From assembly GCA_963783375.1 (NCBI GenBank), contig CAWANH010000029.1:576001-640000 (forward strand): 64,000 bases of DNA. Reading direction: 5' to 3'. The stretch is from Candidatus Eiseniibacteriota bacterium. GTDB lineage: Bacteria; Eisenbacteria; RBG-16-71-46; JABDJR01. The position numbers and the translations under genes are program-made. This document shows positions 2,765-41,700 of this stretch, one piece after another. Position 1 is the stretch's first letter. Every line of letters starts with the position of its first letter. Below the pieces are notes generated by a model. It was not told the DNA's origin. It made no database searches and saw nothing but the letters and a program-made list of their open reading frames with translations.

Positions 2765-3145
2765 CTACCAGGAGGTCTCTTCGTCCATGCTCTGATCGAA
2801 CGCCATGACCCCGCCGAAGTCCTCCTTGCGGTCCTCGTCGGTCTTGGCCATGAGGCCCACCTCGATCAGGTTGTATACCACCTCGCCCACGTCCTCGCCC
2901 CGCTTGAGGCCCCAGAAGTTCAACACCGAGCGGGCCATGGGCCCGTACTCCCGGATGGCCATCTCCCGGACTCCCTTGAGGAGTTGCGGCCCGGTGAGAT
3001 GCTCCTTCTCCCTGCCCCGGTGATGGGTGCGCTGGAAGAAATCCAGGGCTGCCTGCACGAAGAAGTAGGCCTCCCGGGCGTAGCGGGTGTCGCGTTCCAG
3101 CACCCGGTCCAGGGTGGCTTCGTAGTCCTCGTCGCTCCCGCTCAT
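2765..3145 (-). CDS. Minf_1886-like conserved hypothetical protein
   Basis: Pattern DTRYAREAYFFVQAAL...HLTGPQLLKGVREMA..EYGPMARSVLNFWG..EDVGEVVYNLIEVGLM..TDEDRKEDF, recognised from memory of this family. Confidence 0.8.
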   Translation of the reverse strand: MSGSDEDYEATLDRVLERDTRYAREAYFFVQAALDFFQRTHHRGREKEHLTGPQLLKGVREMAIREYGPMARSVLNFWGLKRGEDVGEVVYNLIEVGLMAKTDEDRKEDFGGVMAFDQSMDEETSW

Positions 3146-36232: not shown

Positions 36233-37255
36233 TCAACCGAGACGGATCTCGCGCCCTTCGAGCGCCGACTGGTACACCGCCTCCAGGATGCGGTGCAGAA
36301 CCAGGGCGTCCTCCCCCGGCGAGCGGGGCCGGGATCCGGAGCGCGCGCACTCCACGAAGTGGCGGAGCTCGGCCTCGTAGGAGAGCTTGTAGCTGTTTCG
36401 GCCCGCGGTCACCGCCGGGGTGACGTTGACCAGGCTGCCGTGCATCTCCTTGTGCACCCGAAGCGGGTTCAAGAGCGCCGCTCCCTTGTCCCCGAAGAGA
36501 TTCAGGTAGGCGAAGTCCTTCTCCATGAGGAGGCCCCAGGACACCTCCAGGGCCACCGTGCCTCCGCTCTGGAGCCGGAGGAGGGCGGCCGCGCTGGTCT
36601 CCAGCTCATCGCGACGGGGCTTGGGGTGGGCGGTGGCCGAAACCGATTCCACCGGCGGCATGTCCAGGAGCCACATCACCGCATCCAGCATCTGGATCCC
36701 GAGATCGAGGAGCACGCCGCCTCCGGCGTACCGCTTCTTCCCCTTCCAGCTCGGTCCCGACCACTCGGAGGCCTGCATGAGCCAGCCGGTCTTGGCGTAG
36801 AACACCGTGCCCAGTTCGCCCTCGGAGATGAATCGCTTGAGCACGGCGGCGTCCTCCCGGTAGCGGCCGTTGAAGCCGCTCATCAGGATGCGGCCCTGTT
36901 TCCGGGCCGCCGCCACCATCTGCTCCGCCTCCTTGCTGCTGCGTGAGAACGGCTTCTCGCAGAGAACGTGCTTGCCGTTTTCCAGGGCGGCGATGGTCGC
37001 GGGCGCGTGGAGGTGGTTGGGAAGGCAGATATCCACCACCTCCACGTCCTCGAGTTCCACCAGTTCCTCTATGGACCGGGTGACGTGGGGGATGTTGTAC
37101 CGGCCGGCCACCCGGCGGGCCTTGGGAAGGTCGGTATCGCAGATCGCGGCCACCGTCGCTCCCGGGATGCGCGCATAGGCGGGCAAATGGCTGACCTGGG
37201 CGATCGCCCCCGCCCCGAGGATCCCCACCCGAACCTCCCGTTCGGCCTTCACCAT
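36233..37255 (-). CDS. Gfo/Idh/MocA family oxidoreductase
   Basis: Motifs GAGAIAQ, PNHLH, GKHVLCEKP and GGGVLLDLGIQ. Confidence 0.9.
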   Translation of the reverse strand: MVKAEREVRVGILGAGAIAQVSHLPAYARIPGATVAAICDTDLPKARRVAGRYNIPHVTRSIEELVELEDVEVVDICLPNHLHAPATIAALENGKHVLCEKPFSRSSKEAEQMVAAARKQGRILMSGFNGRYREDAAVLKRFISEGELGTVFYAKTGWLMQASEWSGPSWKGKKRYAGGGVLLDLGIQMLDAVMWLLDMPPVESVSATAHPKPRRDELETSAAALLRLQSGGTVALEVSWGLLMEKDFAYLNLFGDKGAALLNPLRVHKEMHGSLVNVTPAVTAGRNSYKLSYEAELRHFVECARSGSRPRSPGEDALVLHRILEAVYQSALEGREIRLG

Positions 37256-38277
37256 CGGGGTTCGCCCTCCAGGCGCACCGTGCCCGTCCCCTCGACCGCC
37301 TCCCCCACCACGAACGCCCCGTTGCCGGCGCGGGCCACGGCCTCGGCTGCCCGCTCCGCGGGCACCGCCGCCACCAGACCCACCCCCAGATTGAACGTCC
37401 GGGTCATCTCATCCAGCGGAACGTCGCCGTAGCGCGCGATCAGCCCGAACAGGGGGGGGATCCGCCAGGCGCTCCGGTCCACCCGGGCGTCGATCCCCGG
37501 GGGAAGGATCCGCGACAGGTTTCCCGGTATCCCCCCTCCGGTGATGTGGGCGGCCCCTTTCAGGGTGCCCCGCAGGGCCTTGAACACCGGGCGATAGGAA
37601 CGGTGGACGGCGAGGAGCGCGTCCCCCAGGGGGACCTTGGTCCCCGGCACCTCGTCGTCGGGGTGGAGCCCGGCCGCCTCGAAGAGCACTCTCCGGGCGA
37701 GAGAGTAGCCGTTGGTGTGGAGGCCGGTGGAAGGAAAGCCCAGGAACACGTCCCCGGGCGCGATCCCGGAACCGTCGACGAAGTCCTCGCGGCGGACCGT
37801 GCCCACGATGCAGCCGACCAGATCCAGATCGGGAGGGGTGTACACCCCGGGCATCTCCGCGGTCTCCCCCCCGATCAGGGCGCAACCGTTGGCCCGGCAT
37901 CCCCGGACCATACCCTCCACCACCTGTTCCACCACTTCGGGGTCCAGCTTCCCCATGCCGACGTAGTCCAGGAAGAGGAGGGGATCGGCGCCGTGCACCC
38001 CGATGTCTCCCGTGCAGTGGTTGACCAGGTCCTCCCCCACCGTGTCGTAGCGACCCAGCATGGCCGCGACCTTGAGCTTGGTCCCCACCCCGTCGATGCT
38101 GGAGACGAGGAGGAGATCGGGATCGCCGCCGGGAATCGTGCAGACGCCGCCGAAGGTGCCGAGTTCGGTGAGCACGTTGGGTCCGAACGTCTCGCGGACC
38201 TTTCCCTTGATGCGGCGGACCGCTTCCTCACCGGCGCTCAGATCCACCCCGGCGTCGCGGTAGCGGATGGGGCTCAT
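37249..38277 (-). CDS. purM: Phosphoribosylformylglycinamidine cyclo-ligase
   Basis: Motifs YRDAGVD, DGVGTKL, LIGGETAEMPG, STGLHTNGYSL, HITGGG and RTFNLG. Confidence 0.97.
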   Translation of the reverse strand: MSPIRYRDAGVDLSAGEEAVRRIKGKVRETFGPNVLTELGTFGGVCTIPGGDPDLLLVSSIDGVGTKLKVAAMLGRYDTVGEDLVNHCTGDIGVHGADPLLFLDYVGMGKLDPEVVEQVVEGMVRGCRANGCALIGGETAEMPGVYTPPDLDLVGCIVGTVRREDFVDGSGIAPGDVFLGFPSTGLHTNGYSLARRVLFEAAGLHPDDEVPGTKVPLGDALLAVHRSYRPVFKALRGTLKGAAHITGGGIPGNLSRILPPGIDARVDRSAWRIPPLFGLIARYGDVPLDEMTRTFNLGVGLVAAVPAERAAEAVARAGNGAFVVGEAVEGTGTVRLEGEPRW

Positions 38278-38293: not shown

Positions 38294-39667
38294 TCATACC
38301 ACCCCGGCGTTGACCAGCCCGGGGCGGGCCAGAAGTTCCGGTGGGGGCGGGGCCACCTCCCCTCCCACCTCGATCTCGCCGCGACGAACGAGACGCTCCA
38401 GGGCGGTGACCACCTCGGGGTCGAACTGGTCCCCGGAGCAGCGCCGCATCTCGGCCATGGACTCCTCCAGGGTCAGGGCCTTCCGGTATACCCGGTCCGA
38501 GGTCATGGCGTCGAAGGCGTCGGCGGTCATCACGATGCGGGCGCCCAGGGAGAACTCCTTGGCCGGCAGGTTGTGGTAGCCGCGGCCGTCCAGCCGCTCG
38601 TGGTGGAAGCGGACCAGGGGGGCCACCCGCCGGAACGCGCGCACCTGTTCCAGGATGTCCGCTCCGAGGCCGGCGTGGAGGCAGATCCGCTCCCGCTCCT
38701 CGGGGCTGAGACGGCCCGGCTTGAGGATCAGGTCCCGCTGGGACATCTTGATCTTTCCGATGTCGTGGAGGAGCCCGCCGTACTCGATCCGCTCCACCTC
38801 CCGCTCGGAGAGCCCCAGCTCCCGGGCCAGGACGGCGCTGTACTTGCTCACCCGCTGGGAGTGCTGACGGGTATAGGGGTCGAACTCATCGATGACACTG
38901 GCCAGCACCCCGGCGAAATCGAGAAGATCGCGTTTGGTCTCGATGTAGAGCTTGAAGCTGTACCGGGCCAGGAGCAGGGGGAAGATGAAGAGCACGACCC
39001 CCCAGGTCCCGAGCCCGAAATAAGCCACCGCCACCGCCGCCCCGAAGGGGAGCGAGGCCACCATGTGAAAGATGGTCCAGATGTAGTTGACCTGCCAGAC
39101 CTGCCACGTCTTTCGTCCCTCGGAAAGCGCGATGACCAGGCTCACGATCATGGTGTTCAGCGCGTAGTAGCTCATCCCCATGGCCACGATCGGCAACAGG
39201 ACGTGGGGAAAGCCGAGGGGCTGTCCGGGCACCCCGCCCAGAACCTGGTACACCCACCCCGCCACCATCACCGTGCCCGCGAAGGCGCAGGCGTTGAAGA
39301 TGGCTTTGTGGAGCGGGCGGCGCTGAACGCCGAGCTGCAGGAGCATGGTGGCCGCGAACTCGGCCAGGGCGGTGGGAAGCGGTCCCAGGATGAGGATGCC
39401 CGCGTAGTCCAGGGTCGAGGACACCGTGATGAACCCGCCTCCCGGCAGGTTGACCGGAGCGGCGTCGGTGACCACGATGAGGGCGAACCAGAGGAGAAGG
39501 AGGAACGGAGAGGTTCCGGCCAGGTCGGGCAGGTGCCAACCGAGCAACGTCAACCCCGCGGCCACGATCAGCCCGTAGTAGGCGCGAAACCAGCGGGAAG
39601 CCCCCGTCGGCGCCCCCAGCCGTGAAGGCTGCTGAATGGTGATGCCCTCCACGCTCGCGTCAAGCAT
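38294..39667 (-). CDS. Membrane-bound HD-GYP domain phosphodiesterase with multi-TM sensor domain
   Basis: About 7 hydrophobic helices, then DPYTRQHSQRV, LLHDIGK, HHERLDGRGYH and ADAFDAMTSDRVYR. Start uncertain (39667 or 39691). Confidence 0.9.
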   Translation of the reverse strand: MLDASVEGITIQQPSRLGAPTGASRWFRAYYGLIVAAGLTLLGWHLPDLAGTSPFLLLLWFALIVVTDAAPVNLPGGGFITVSSTLDYAGILILGPLPTALAEFAATMLLQLGVQRRPLHKAIFNACAFAGTVMVAGWVYQVLGGVPGQPLGFPHVLLPIVAMGMSYYALNTMIVSLVIALSEGRKTWQVWQVNYIWTIFHMVASLPFGAAVAVAYFGLGTWGVVLFIFPLLLARYSFKLYIETKRDLLDFAGVLASVIDEFDPYTRQHSQRVSKYSAVLARELGLSEREVERIEYGGLLHDIGKIKMSQRDLILKPGRLSPEERERICLHAGLGADILEQVRAFRRVAPLVRFHHERLDGRGYHNLPAKEFSLGARIVMTADAFDAMTSDRVYRKALTLEESMAEMRRCSGDQFDPEVVTALERLVRRGEIEVGGEVAPPPPELLARPGLVNAGVV

Positions 39668-39763
39668 ACCCCCCCGATCCGCCCCCCCCATCGGGGCGCG
39701 GTTCCGGAGGGCTCGGGCTGGTGACGGCAGAAAATGTTCCGGCCGAGCACCCCTACGCCGGGT

Positions 39764-39826
39764 CTACATCCAACCGGATTTTCCCTCGAAAATCACGGAC
39801 ATCAGGTCCAAGAGAAGCTCCCACAT
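39764..39826 (-). CDS. Unannotated 20-aa peptide MWELLLDLMSVIFEGKSGWM
   Basis: The minus strand reads AAACAAGGAGCAAAGCC-ATG TGG GAG CTT CTC TTG GAC CTG ATG TCC GTG ATT TTC GAG GGA AAA TCC GGT TGG ATG TAG. AAGGAG RBS at 7-nt spacing in an A-rich leader; below the ORF-track length cutoff. Confidence 0.7.
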   Translation of the reverse strand: MWELLLDLMSVIFEGKSGWM

Positions 39827-39876
39827 GGCTTTGCTCCTTGTTTAGAGGAATCTGAGGTCAGGGTCGCCATCGGTGG

Positions 39877-39906
39877 TTCGCTTCGCTCGTTCGCTTGCTT
39901 GGCTTG
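39877..39906 (-). repeat. Short degenerate 4-5 nt tandem repeat in the peptide leader
   Basis: The minus strand reads CAAGCCAAGCAAGCGAACGAGCGAAGCGAA (AAGC/GAAC/GAGC units). Confidence 0.5.
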
Positions 39907-39934
39907 TATACGGCTCTGGGTCGGGTGTTTCTCC

Positions 39935-40696
39935 TCAGGGCAAGGATGTCGGCCGGATCTCGTACTCGACCGGCTCCCGGTAGCGGAGCCGGCCCAGAAT
40001 GCGGTTCAGGGCGTCCAACGTAGCATAGACAACCGACTGCTGCAAATCGTGGCTGACCGGACACGATCCGGTCAACGTCTTCTCCGATCTATCTTTATAG
40101 AATTTGACCGCAACCACCACCACGTCCTCTCCGCCCAGTTCCAGGATCTCCATGTCGGTCAGGGAAAACACGTAGGTCTCGTCCACGAAGCGCTCCACCG
40201 CCTCCAGGGCGGCCTGCCCGATGAGAAGCGGGACCTGCCGGCGGGAGTTGGACCCCGCCGCCTCCCCCACGGTTTCCCGGTCTCCCAGGGACAATTCCAC
40301 CCGGGCACGGCAGGAGGCCTGGTCCAGTCCCACCGTCACCCCCACGAAGCGGAGGCGGATGGCGGCGGGTTCCTCATCGATGCGCAGGGCGGGCAGGGTG
40401 AGCACGTTGGGGAGACGGGGAGGCTCGGCGGCCGGCGGCTCGCCGCCGGTATCGCGCTTCTGAGCCACCGAGATCTTGCGGTAATCCACGTCCATCTGAT
40501 ACTCGGCGCGGAGCGCGGAGCGCACGTCGCGGACGATCTGCTTGGGCGGGCGCTGCCCGTCAGCCAGGATATTGATCTCGGCGATATCCCGGTCGTCTTC
40601 GGTCAGGGAGATCGAGGCCCGCGCGATATTGCGAAGGCTGAGCAGCAACTTCTCCGCCTCGATCACCCACTCGCGCCCGCGTGAAACGTTGTTCAA
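39935..40696 (-). CDS. Conserved hypothetical soluble protein; C-terminus resembles the LeuA allosteric-domain pattern
   Basis: AAAGAGGG RBS before TTG; N-domain EINILADGQRPPKQIVRDVRSAL...DYRKISVAQ; Pro-rich linker; C-domain LTGSC..SHDLQQSVVYATLDALNR. Confidence 0.8.
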   Translation of the reverse strand: MNNVSRGREWVIEAEKLLLSLRNIARASISLTEDDRDIAEINILADGQRPPKQIVRDVRSALRAEYQMDVDYRKISVAQKRDTGGEPPAAEPPRLPNVLTLPALRIDEEPAAIRLRFVGVTVGLDQASCRARVELSLGDRETVGEAAGSNSRRQVPLLIGQAALEAVERFVDETYVFSLTDMEILELGGEDVVVVAVKFYKDRSEKTLTGSCPVSHDLQQSVVYATLDALNRILGRLRYREPVEYEIRPTSLP

Positions 40697-40728
40697 GCTA
40701 CCCTCTTTGCTTGAAGATCCACCGACGG

Positions 40729-40757
40729 TTTATATCAGACCCCCCCCGGGGAAGCAA
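40729..40757 (-). promoter_or_regulatory. Putative sigma70 promoter for the hypothetical-peptide-HD-GYP module
   Basis: TTGCTT-N17-TATAAA with an extended TG, about 32 nt upstream of TTG 40696. Confidence 0.6.
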
Positions 40758-40797: not shown

Positions 40798-41700
40798 TCA
40801 GAATTGCGCCATCTTCCGGACCTCGTGGAAACGGGCCTCGATCTCCTCCCGGGACGCGGTGGCCAGCCGTCCGAGGCTGAACGCCTCCACCGTGAACGAG
40901 GCGAGCACGGTGCCGTAGATCGCCGCCCGGCGGATCTCCGCCTCGCTCCGGCTGTCTCCGCACCCGGCCAGGTAGCCCAGGAACCCCCCGGCGAAGGTGT
41001 CCCCGGCCCCGGTGGGATCGTAGATCAGCTCGATGGGATACGCGGGAGCGGCGAACGTGAACTCGGGGGTCAGGACCAGGGATCCGTGCTCCCCCTTCTT
41101 CACGATCACCATGTCCGGACCCAGGCCGAGGACCGATCGCGCCGCCTTGATGAGGTTGGGCTCGCCGGTGAGCATCCGCACTTCCTCATCGTTCAGAAGC
41201 ACCACGTTCACCCGGCGGAGGGTGGCCATGAGGTCGTCCCGCGACCGCTCGATCCAGTAGTTCATGGTGTCGAGCACCACCAGGGAGGGGTCGCTCACCT
41301 GGTCCAGGACGCTTCCCTGAAGTCCCGGGTGGATGTTGGCCAGGAAGACGTACTTCGCCGCCCGGTAGGATTCAGGGAGCACCGGCTTGAATTCGGCAAA
41401 TACGTTGAGCTGGGTGTCCAGGGTGGTCCTGGTGTTGAGGTCGTAGCCGTACTCCCCCGCCCACCGGAACGTGCGTCCCGAGGCGGTCTCCAGACCGCCG
41501 ACGTCGATTCCCCGGTTGCGGAAGAATTCCACGTGTTCCTCGGGGAAATCATTTCCTACCACCGCCACCATCGCCACCGGGGCGAAATGACGCGCGGCCA
41601 CCGCGAAGTAGGAGGCGGAGCCCCCCAGGGCGTCCTTGGCCTCCCCGAAGGGGGTCTTCACCGAATCCAGGGCCACCGACCCCACCACCAGTACGCTCAC
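40798..41700 (-). CDS. PfkB family carbohydrate/nucleoside kinase
   Basis: Motifs VVGSVALDSVKTP, LGGSASYF, DTMNYWI, VKKGEHG and DPTGAGDTFAGG. Confidence 0.92.
   Translation of the reverse strand: MSVLVVGSVALDSVKTPFGEAKDALGGSASYFAVAARHFAPVAMVAVVGNDFPEEHVEFFRNRGIDVGGLETASGRTFRWAGEYGYDLNTRTTLDTQLNVFAEFKPVLPESYRAAKYVFLANIHPGLQGSVLDQVSDPSLVVLDTMNYWIERSRDDLMATLRRVNVVLLNDEEVRMLTGEPNLIKAARSVLGLGPDMVIVKKGEHGSLVLTPEFTFAAPAYPIELIYDPTGAGDTFAGGFLGYLAGCGDSRSEAEIRRAAIYGTVLASFTVEAFSLGRLATASREEIEARFHEVRKMAQF

Follow-up and report, generated by a model that had tools for sequence, protein, structure and literature searches.

A small peptide gene enclosed in a structured RNA forms a conserved module with an orphan protein and a MASE9-like membrane HD-GYP protein

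RESULTS

Three co-oriented genes between a PfkB kinase gene and purM

We analyzed a 64,000-nt stretch of a Candidatus Eisenbacteria genome on contig CAWANH010000029.1 (the window, to which all coordinates refer) and, within it, a module that may couple a small peptide to cyclic di-GMP (c-di-GMP) turnover. The module and its flanking genes all lie on the minus strand, where a PfkB-family kinase gene is followed by a promoter-like element, a 253-amino-acid (aa) orphan open reading frame (ORF), a 20-codon ORF, a gene for a membrane HD-GYP protein, and purM. A preliminary description, made from the sequence alone, had seen three co-oriented units amid housekeeping genes. Of the flanking genes, both outside the module, positions 40798 to 41700 matched PfkB-family kinases in Pfam and positions 37249 to 38277 scored above the TIGR00878 cutoff as purM.

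The orphan protein (39935 to 40696) begins with a TTG codon and had no match in Pfam. The 20-codon ORF, MWELLLDLMSVIFEGKSGWM (39764 to 39826), encodes an acidic amphipathic leader followed by a G-KSGW(M) core, and it had no family match in Pfam or NCBIfam. Its Shine-Dalgarno sequence, AAGGAG, lies 7 nt upstream of the start codon and, in the fold of the window element, is predicted to pair with a CTCT upstream of it (39834 to 39847). The frame of the HD-GYP gene is open from 38294 to 39691, and the ATG at 39667 is the more likely start codon, a choice supported by the close relative L002. Its product (38294 to 39667) joins a MASE9-like membrane domain to an HD-GYP domain (HD_5, E = 1e-29). The MASE9 match (PF20972) in the window protein itself was below the cutoff (18.3 bits against 24.3; E = 0.002), and three of the four syntenic relatives tested scored above it.

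The promoter that had been proposed ahead of the three units is present in the sequence as a sigma70-like candidate (40729 to 40757), with TTGCTT at 40757 to 40752, a 17-nt spacer, TATAAA at 40734 to 40729, and a TG before the −10 element. By eye, TTG..-TGnTATAAA recurs at the equivalent position in five relatives (L001 to L005), the first three of which were also matched by a pattern search. A consensus promoter scanner returned 0 sites and did not score the element.

The gene order is conserved in several phyla

We looked across Candidatus Eisenbacteria (hereafter the phylum), the source of the named relatives of the 253-aa protein. The orphan protein was matched in 114 of 151 phylum genomes, with a single match in its own genome. 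A sample of 70 loci, one per genome, was made up of the 30 best orphan matches and 40 chosen for spread across families. Peptide and HD-GYP genes were both present in 41 of these loci and both absent from 24; one stood alone in 2, and 3 were cut by a contig end (five of the peptide calls were assigned by hand). In nearly all of the 24 orphan-only loci, purM came directly next. Four of the 41 complete loci (L032, L042, L053, and L069) had an insert between the orphan gene and the rest of the module. Family f13 had the orphan in 12/12 genomes and the membrane domain in 0/12; family f5 had the membrane domain in 32/32 and the orphan in 0/32 (0/5 with a broad profile). The eight upstream regions examined in f5 had the HD-GYP gene directly after the PfkB gene, with neither peptide nor AGCG-N-AGCG motif (described below). 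A separate feature of f5 is a TGGCAC-N5-(G/T)TGC element, which we take to be sigma-54-like, ahead of the HD-GYP gene in L184, L185, L187, L191, L193, L194, L196, and L200.

The orphan family comprised 3,621 representatives after clustering at 50% identity (E ≤ 0.001). The best 80 of 583 confirmed genome matches outside the phylum were mostly from Bacillota, with Coriobacteriia, one Armatimonadota record, and one Chloroflexota record. HD-GYP was present in 65 of these 80 loci; peptide and HD-GYP were both present in 64 and both missing from 6. In these other phyla the usual fourth gene encodes DUF5317, a candidate peptidase (60/80 loci). A metagenome scan that began from the AGCG-N-AGCG motif gave a MASE9-like gene downstream in 12 of 80 loci (L204 to L283); all 12 had a small ORF, and 11 had the orphan upstream, the twelfth being cut off. 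The other 68 loci carried a doubled AGCG(A/G)AGCG without the module and may belong to a repeated-element family.

Among 251 Actinomycetota genomes, DUF5317 was found in 93 and the orphan profile in 79, raw tallies that contain four and two unpublished genomes, respectively. With these left out, the full-length orphan was present in 57 genomes, in 32 of them within 7 kb of DUF5317 and in several gene orders, and was not found in 44 of 89 DUF5317-bearing genomes. Since about half of the DUF5317 genomes are without it, and peptide-MASE9-DUF5317 sets exist without it, the orphan is an optional partner. Two further observations concern the orphan family itself: in L074 (5001 to 6500) the orphan-family gene is duplicated in tandem ahead of the peptide, and many Actinomycetota genomes encode proteins, some of them short and stand-alone, that match only profile positions 85 to 213, the LeuA-like half.

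By these comparisons, the order orphan, small ORF, MASE9-like membrane HD-GYP is conserved across several phyla. The linkage that the preliminary description had proposed to look for, a membrane HD-GYP gene with an intervening small ORF next to orphan homologs, was thus found both in the phylum and beyond it.

A covarying RNA stem encloses the small ORF

A feature absent from the preliminary description is a structured RNA around the small ORF. The 5′ arm of a long stem (39949 to 39957) lies inside the orphan gene, among its final codons (those for I-R-P-T), and forms a perfect 9-bp helix with a 3′ arm (39746 to 39738) that is followed by a short U-rich run (39729 to 39746 for arm and run together). 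The element folded with a z score of −3.57 in the window. In 105 loci we measured the longest perfect helix that joins sequence ahead of the leader to the first 100 nt downstream of the peptide stop; its mean length was 10.2 bp, compared with 6.7 bp in shuffled sequences and 6.3 to 7.7 bp with swapped partners. The two arms were also anchored separately on a shared core, RRCCGRC and GYCGGYC, in 92 of 104 loci; at variable positions the arms of one locus paired far more often with each other than with arms swapped in from other loci (0.88 versus 0.43 where variation was greatest; 0.97 versus 0.78). The 3′ arm of the window deviates from this core and was left out of the test. On a plain alignment of 26 loci the stem paired at 100%, both sides of a pair having changed 28 times compared with 8.9 times in shuffled alignments, and three helices were 91.7% paired in 20 phylum loci; both alignments were drawn from the anchored-arm loci and the structure was derived from them, so these figures lean high.

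The codons under the 5′ arm are constrained. The Pro codon was CCG in 33/33 phylum loci (51% elsewhere in orphan genes), and the Arg codon was AGA in 23/33 (2% elsewhere). The R-P-T/A-S ending of the orphan protein was missing where the peptide was not directly next. A U-rich run followed the 3′ arm in 61% of the 33 phylum loci (background, 5%) and in 54% of 61 others (background, 22%).

Between the 5′ arm and the small ORF, ahead of its ribosome binding site (RBS), lie AGCG repeats (39879 to 39896) that end in AGCGAAGCG. This AGCG-N-AGCG motif, a candidate binding site for the orphan protein, was near-invariant in three alignments (A6, A7, and A8). In 20 phylum loci the equivalent helix over the Shine-Dalgarno sequence, CCCACC/GGTGGG, was 89% paired. 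A search of the window and six related loci against Rfam 15, including its c-di-GMP riboswitches, gave no relevant match, and RNAalifold gave no consensus for the hairpin that outside the phylum has a third AGCG in its loop (see below). Taken together, these sequence comparisons show that a covarying stem closes around the peptide ORF, often with a U-rich run after it, and that in the phylum a second helix covers the RBS.

The orphan protein has a LeuA-type domain and co-occurs with the AGCG motif

A structure model of the orphan protein (predicted local distance difference test score, 83.7) comprised an alpha-beta-beta-alpha-beta domain (residues 9 to 80) and a (beta3-alpha)x2 domain (residues 115 to 234) joined by a disordered linker. 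The model, a profile match of the C-terminal domain to LeuA_dimer (83.5%, E = 8e-6), and Foldseek, in which LeuA was the best match (E = 7e-6), agree on a LeuA-type fold. The next Foldseek matches were tandem double-stranded RNA-binding domain proteins and ribosomal protein S5, with a poor overall fit. Against the Pfam family itself (PF08502), the window protein was below the cutoff, and 19 of 56 family members matched weakly (best E = 4e-4). Residues R114, N231, and R232 were invariant. Any binding of branched-chain amino acids would have to use a loop that differs from that of LeuA.

The orphan had earlier been suggested to be either a regulator or a maturation factor. The second role was not supported: the protein combines a LeuA regulatory fold with a small alpha/beta domain, and its fold matches included no peptidase. 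The first role gained ground, and the decisive clue was that the AGCG motif goes with the orphan family. We compared 40 Actinomycetota DUF5317 loci from 38 genomes without the full-length orphan with 20 from orphan-bearing genomes and called a peptide in 16 and 15 of them, respectively. AGCG-N-AGCG stood ahead of the peptide in 15/15 loci from orphan-bearing genomes and in 0/16 from the others, while 1.7% and 0.3% of background windows contained it, respectively. This split covers related genomes and does not amount to 31 independent events. The motif was kept even where the orphan gene was divergent and 0.5 to 1.5 kb distant.

From this association and its fold matches, the orphan is probably an RNA-binding regulator. 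An alternative, possible but doubtful in our judgment, concerns the orphan only: the motif might be recognized as DNA, or the protein might be a ligand adaptor that works independently of the motif, their co-occurrence reflecting shared ancestry as a cassette. The divergent gene order in many Actinomycetota is what one would see for a transcription factor, in fold the protein comes closest to a domain for regulation by small molecules, the orphan survives alone beside purM, and the relatedness of the genomes just noted also fits. This alternative is harder to reconcile with a motif whose strand is fixed and whose distance to the peptide start stays at about 60 to 85 nt, with irregular spacing of the AGCG repeats, with a third AGCG that outside the phylum sits in a hairpin loop (6.6 versus 3.8 bp; 31 of 32 above their own shuffles), and with the lack of a helix-turn-helix in the model or the fold matches.

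The small ORF encodes a conserved C-terminal core

The tiny ORF with a strong RBS reported earlier is coding, as judged from its occurrence at the same position in relatives, beyond chance, and from synonymous codon variation all through the core (26 loci). The consensus at the C terminus of the phylum peptides is (G)-K/R-A/S/G-G-W. Among 39 of them the core was KAGW in 14, RAGW in 10, KSGW in 7, and KGGW in 3, the rest being variants, and Gly directly preceded it in 27 of 36. Leader length and charge varied freely while the core was kept. Two or three copies of the core, with polar spacers, were present in 6 of the 39 peptides, as in NDG-KGGW-DLQPTDG-KGGW-DRTDG-KAGW or a peptide with GGHAWW three times; such repeats suggest that the peptide is processed.

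Outside the phylum the peptides have a basic hydrophobic leader, then AGGA and about four variable residues; in 22 Desulfosporosinus-type loci AGGA was invariant and the last four residues varied. A near-terminal Trp, which the preliminary description had named as a feature of the small ORF, is typical of the phylum peptides but not universal: of the cores in a set of 22 loci from Bacillota, only 5 end in Trp. In L400, L422, L448, and L450 the peptide gene itself occurs in two or three tandem copies, an alternative to a gene with several cores, and in L399, L404, and L410 it lies on the strand opposite the MASE9 gene.

The HD-GYP enzyme and other MASE9 genes of the genome

The description of the membrane protein as an HD-GYP enzyme agrees with the domain match and the metal ligands (H, HD, H, HH, and D are all kept in an alignment to PmGH, 4MCW); the eponymous motif reads GYH in place of GYP. 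The guanine-binding KPG and RxY[K/R] motifs are kept as LKPG and RVYR. At the position of the acidic PmGH residue E185 there is a Tyr (DPYT versus DPET). By the rules for metals and products in the main text of 10.1101/2021.11.05.467447, which also notes exceptions, these residues together are expected to give a two-metal enzyme specific for c-di-GMP, with pGpG as its end product. The genome encodes 4 GGDEF and 5 HD-GYP frames by a rough motif count, so c-di-GMP is likely in use.

A second MASE9 protein of the same genome, above the Pfam cutoff, is a histidine kinase (L072:1186-2733). Its gene is followed by a 30-codon ORF, MFSIINHAMSLTGAWEWLGAWEWLGAWEWI (L072, about 3045 to 3137; both genes in G000:C28, about 431275 to 433230, plus strand), with GAWEW three times and with the element TTCGGCAC-N5-TTGC, presumably sigma-54-like, ahead of it. 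This pair suggests that Trp-cored peptides go with the MASE9 sensor whatever its output. The genome also has a second MASE9-like HD-GYP gene (G000:C29, about 1155200 to 1157510, minus strand) with a long C-terminal extension; it has a divergent GAF-type HD-GYP gene beside it and two genes for PilT-like ATPases nearby (named by eye), and no Trp-ended small ORF was seen in front of it. In 22 Bacillota loci the sensor was the most variable part, with a distance of 0.44 versus 0.23 for the HD domain.

DISCUSSION

A peptide-to-c-di-GMP module with an RNA layer

The preliminary description had proposed that the peptide is a ligand or partner of the transmembrane sensor. This is still the best reading of the module, in keeping with the repeated cores and with peptide and HD-GYP genes that are kept or lost together; the comparisons add an RNA layer and change the role of the orphan. 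The small ORF would encode a precursor whose C-terminal G-KSGW core is likely the signal for the neighboring MASE9-like domain. Beyond the peptide, most transcripts may be ended or trimmed at the stem, so that peptide message would be plentiful and receptor message scarce. A dimer of the orphan could bind the AGCG repeats beside the helix that hides the RBS and so gate translation of the peptide, and a small molecule may act as a further input through the LeuA-like domain of the orphan. Cleavage of the precursor after Gly would free a core of 4 to 5 residues, which would bind MASE9 within the membrane and alter c-di-GMP turnover in either direction, the fused HD-GYP domain being predicted from its residues to break c-di-GMP down to pGpG at a two-metal site.

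We lean toward the view that a released or membrane-processed core is the MASE9 ligand. More tentative is the broadest form of the idea, a phylum-spanning mode of peptide signaling into c-di-GMP in which Gly-released cores of 4 to 5 residues are MASE9 ligands and a LeuA-fold RNA-binding family reads AGCG repeats, possibly sensing c-di-GMP or the peptide as feedback at the RNA level.

A number of observations weigh against the peptide-ligand reading. Of 39 phylum peptides, 29 have an acidic leader, compared with a basic, signal-like one in 66 of 67 peptides from elsewhere, and the L070 peptide is only about 9 to 11 residues long, so export and cleavage are unexplained. DUF5317 was not found in any of 151 phylum genomes, although positive controls were detected in two named genomes; the acidic leaders go together with this absence, which makes the window locus a DUF5317-less variant without an identified processing enzyme. 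Within the phylum the core hardly varies, unlike strain-specific pheromones, and in 22 Bacillota loci core type did not follow MASE9 distance (partial Mantel r = 0.056, P = 0.28). Compared with the family motif HHExh(D/N)GxGYP, the window sequence HHERLDGRGYH keeps the Tyr with the Pro replaced; of 15 loci read, 14 have GYP. The peptide stands without HD-GYP in L044, and HD-GYP without the peptide in L035. As for the RNA and the orphan, the whole element had a mean z score of −1.9 over 27 loci, several of which scored close to zero or above it; the exact motif was missing in eight orphan-plus-peptide loci outside the phylum (L075 to L080, L083, and L119); the 24 orphan-only phylum loci lack the motif as well as the peptide and HD-GYP; and a search of two orphan-only genomes with a motif model gave no other significant target.

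Some of these points would suit a different role for the peptide. MgrB, a small membrane peptide, docks on PhoQ. By analogy the peptide, uncut and unreleased, could be a whole membrane-associated subunit that docks on MASE9 in the same cell, the RNA and the orphan setting an internal switch. We consider this rather unlikely, even though an acidic amphipathic leader without signal-peptide character, a nearly uniform core, the absence of DUF5317 from the phylum, and the fact that the phylum loci examined contained no gene for a transporter or a peptidase all agree with it. Against it stand the cores repeated between polar spacers, the leaders that change in length and charge around a fixed core, and the invariant AGGA, the variable four-residue tail, and the linked DUF5317 of other phyla. 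That the ORF is a cis-acting leader peptide, whose translation remodels the stem and U-run to set read-through into the HD-GYP gene and whose product is irrelevant, is improbable: the enclosing stem, the frequent U-rich run, the paired RBS, and the amino-acid-regulatory fold of the neighboring orphan would suit it, but there is no run of one amino acid's codons, many cores are without Trp, the same type of peptide occurs without stem or motif (0/16, mean helix 6.6 bp), and tandem peptide copies and genes on the strand opposite MASE9 occur.

If the peptide-ligand reading is right, peptide communication is joined to c-di-GMP without a kinase, and an orphan protein family with thousands of members gains a function. 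MASE9 is a widespread sensor without a known input, for which the module offers a candidate ligand that is inexpensive to synthesize, an RNA element, and a protein. The steps can be tested in relatives that grow in culture (Desulfosporosinus, Thermoanaerobacterium, and Desulfitobacterium).

Comparison with known systems

We found no description of the module in the open full-text literature, in which DUF5317 was not mentioned either and one paper had MASE9 together with HD-GYP (the supplements of 10.1101/2021.11.05.467447 were outside this scope); the module is thus conserved and, within that literature, undescribed. The main text of that preprint defines MASE9 and proposes binding within the membrane without naming a ligand. 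The same fusion of a MASE9-like domain to HD-GYP is found in Thermotoga maritima TM1467 and in HdgA (10.1101/2021.11.05.467447; PMC6205966). The passages of the two papers on these proteins name neither a ligand nor a peptide, an RNA, or an upstream regulator, and the word "peptide" does not occur in the main text of the preprint. Those of PMC6205966 place HdgA and HdgB of Streptomyces venezuelae in the membrane, report mutants without a phenotype, and suggest that an activating signal was missing for the silent HdgA. The silent Streptomyces member perhaps lacked such a signal in the laboratory.

The (beta3-alpha)x2 fold of the orphan is that of the LeuA/CimA regulatory domain (PF08502; 1SR9 and 3F6G) over about 106 to 133 columns. 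Unlike LeuA and CimA, the orphan has no catalytic domain, is joined to a small N-terminal domain, and falls below the Pfam cutoff, and an insertion replaces the G-x-G-P-x-D-A stretch of LeuA. At the RNA level the nearest likeness is to CsrA/RsmA, which controls translation through a short repeated GGA motif beside the RBS, one copy of it in a hairpin loop. The module shares the short repeated motif, the hairpin-loop copy, and the adjoining RBS; it differs in that the motif is AGCG, the protein is unrelated, and the motif appears to serve one gene.

In peptide quorum sensing (Agr, ComCDE, and ComQXP, with Gly-cleaved pheromone precursors), a small precursor gene sits beside that of a membrane receptor. 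An Agr system has an AgrB peptidase, an AgrD with a ring-forming Cys or Ser, and an AgrC histidine kinase. We rejected an Agr-type system here, the receptor being an HD-GYP protein and neither peptide nor orphan having a family match, and no AgrB, ComQ, or peptidase-ATP-binding cassette gene was seen in the loci examined. The output through HD-GYP and the enclosure of the gene in a structured RNA set the module apart, as does its host phylum, which we take to be diderm. Although no tested part belongs to a described peptide-signaling family, the small precursor gene beside a membrane receptor, the conserved leader, and the short C-terminal core follow a logic like that of peptide quorum sensing.

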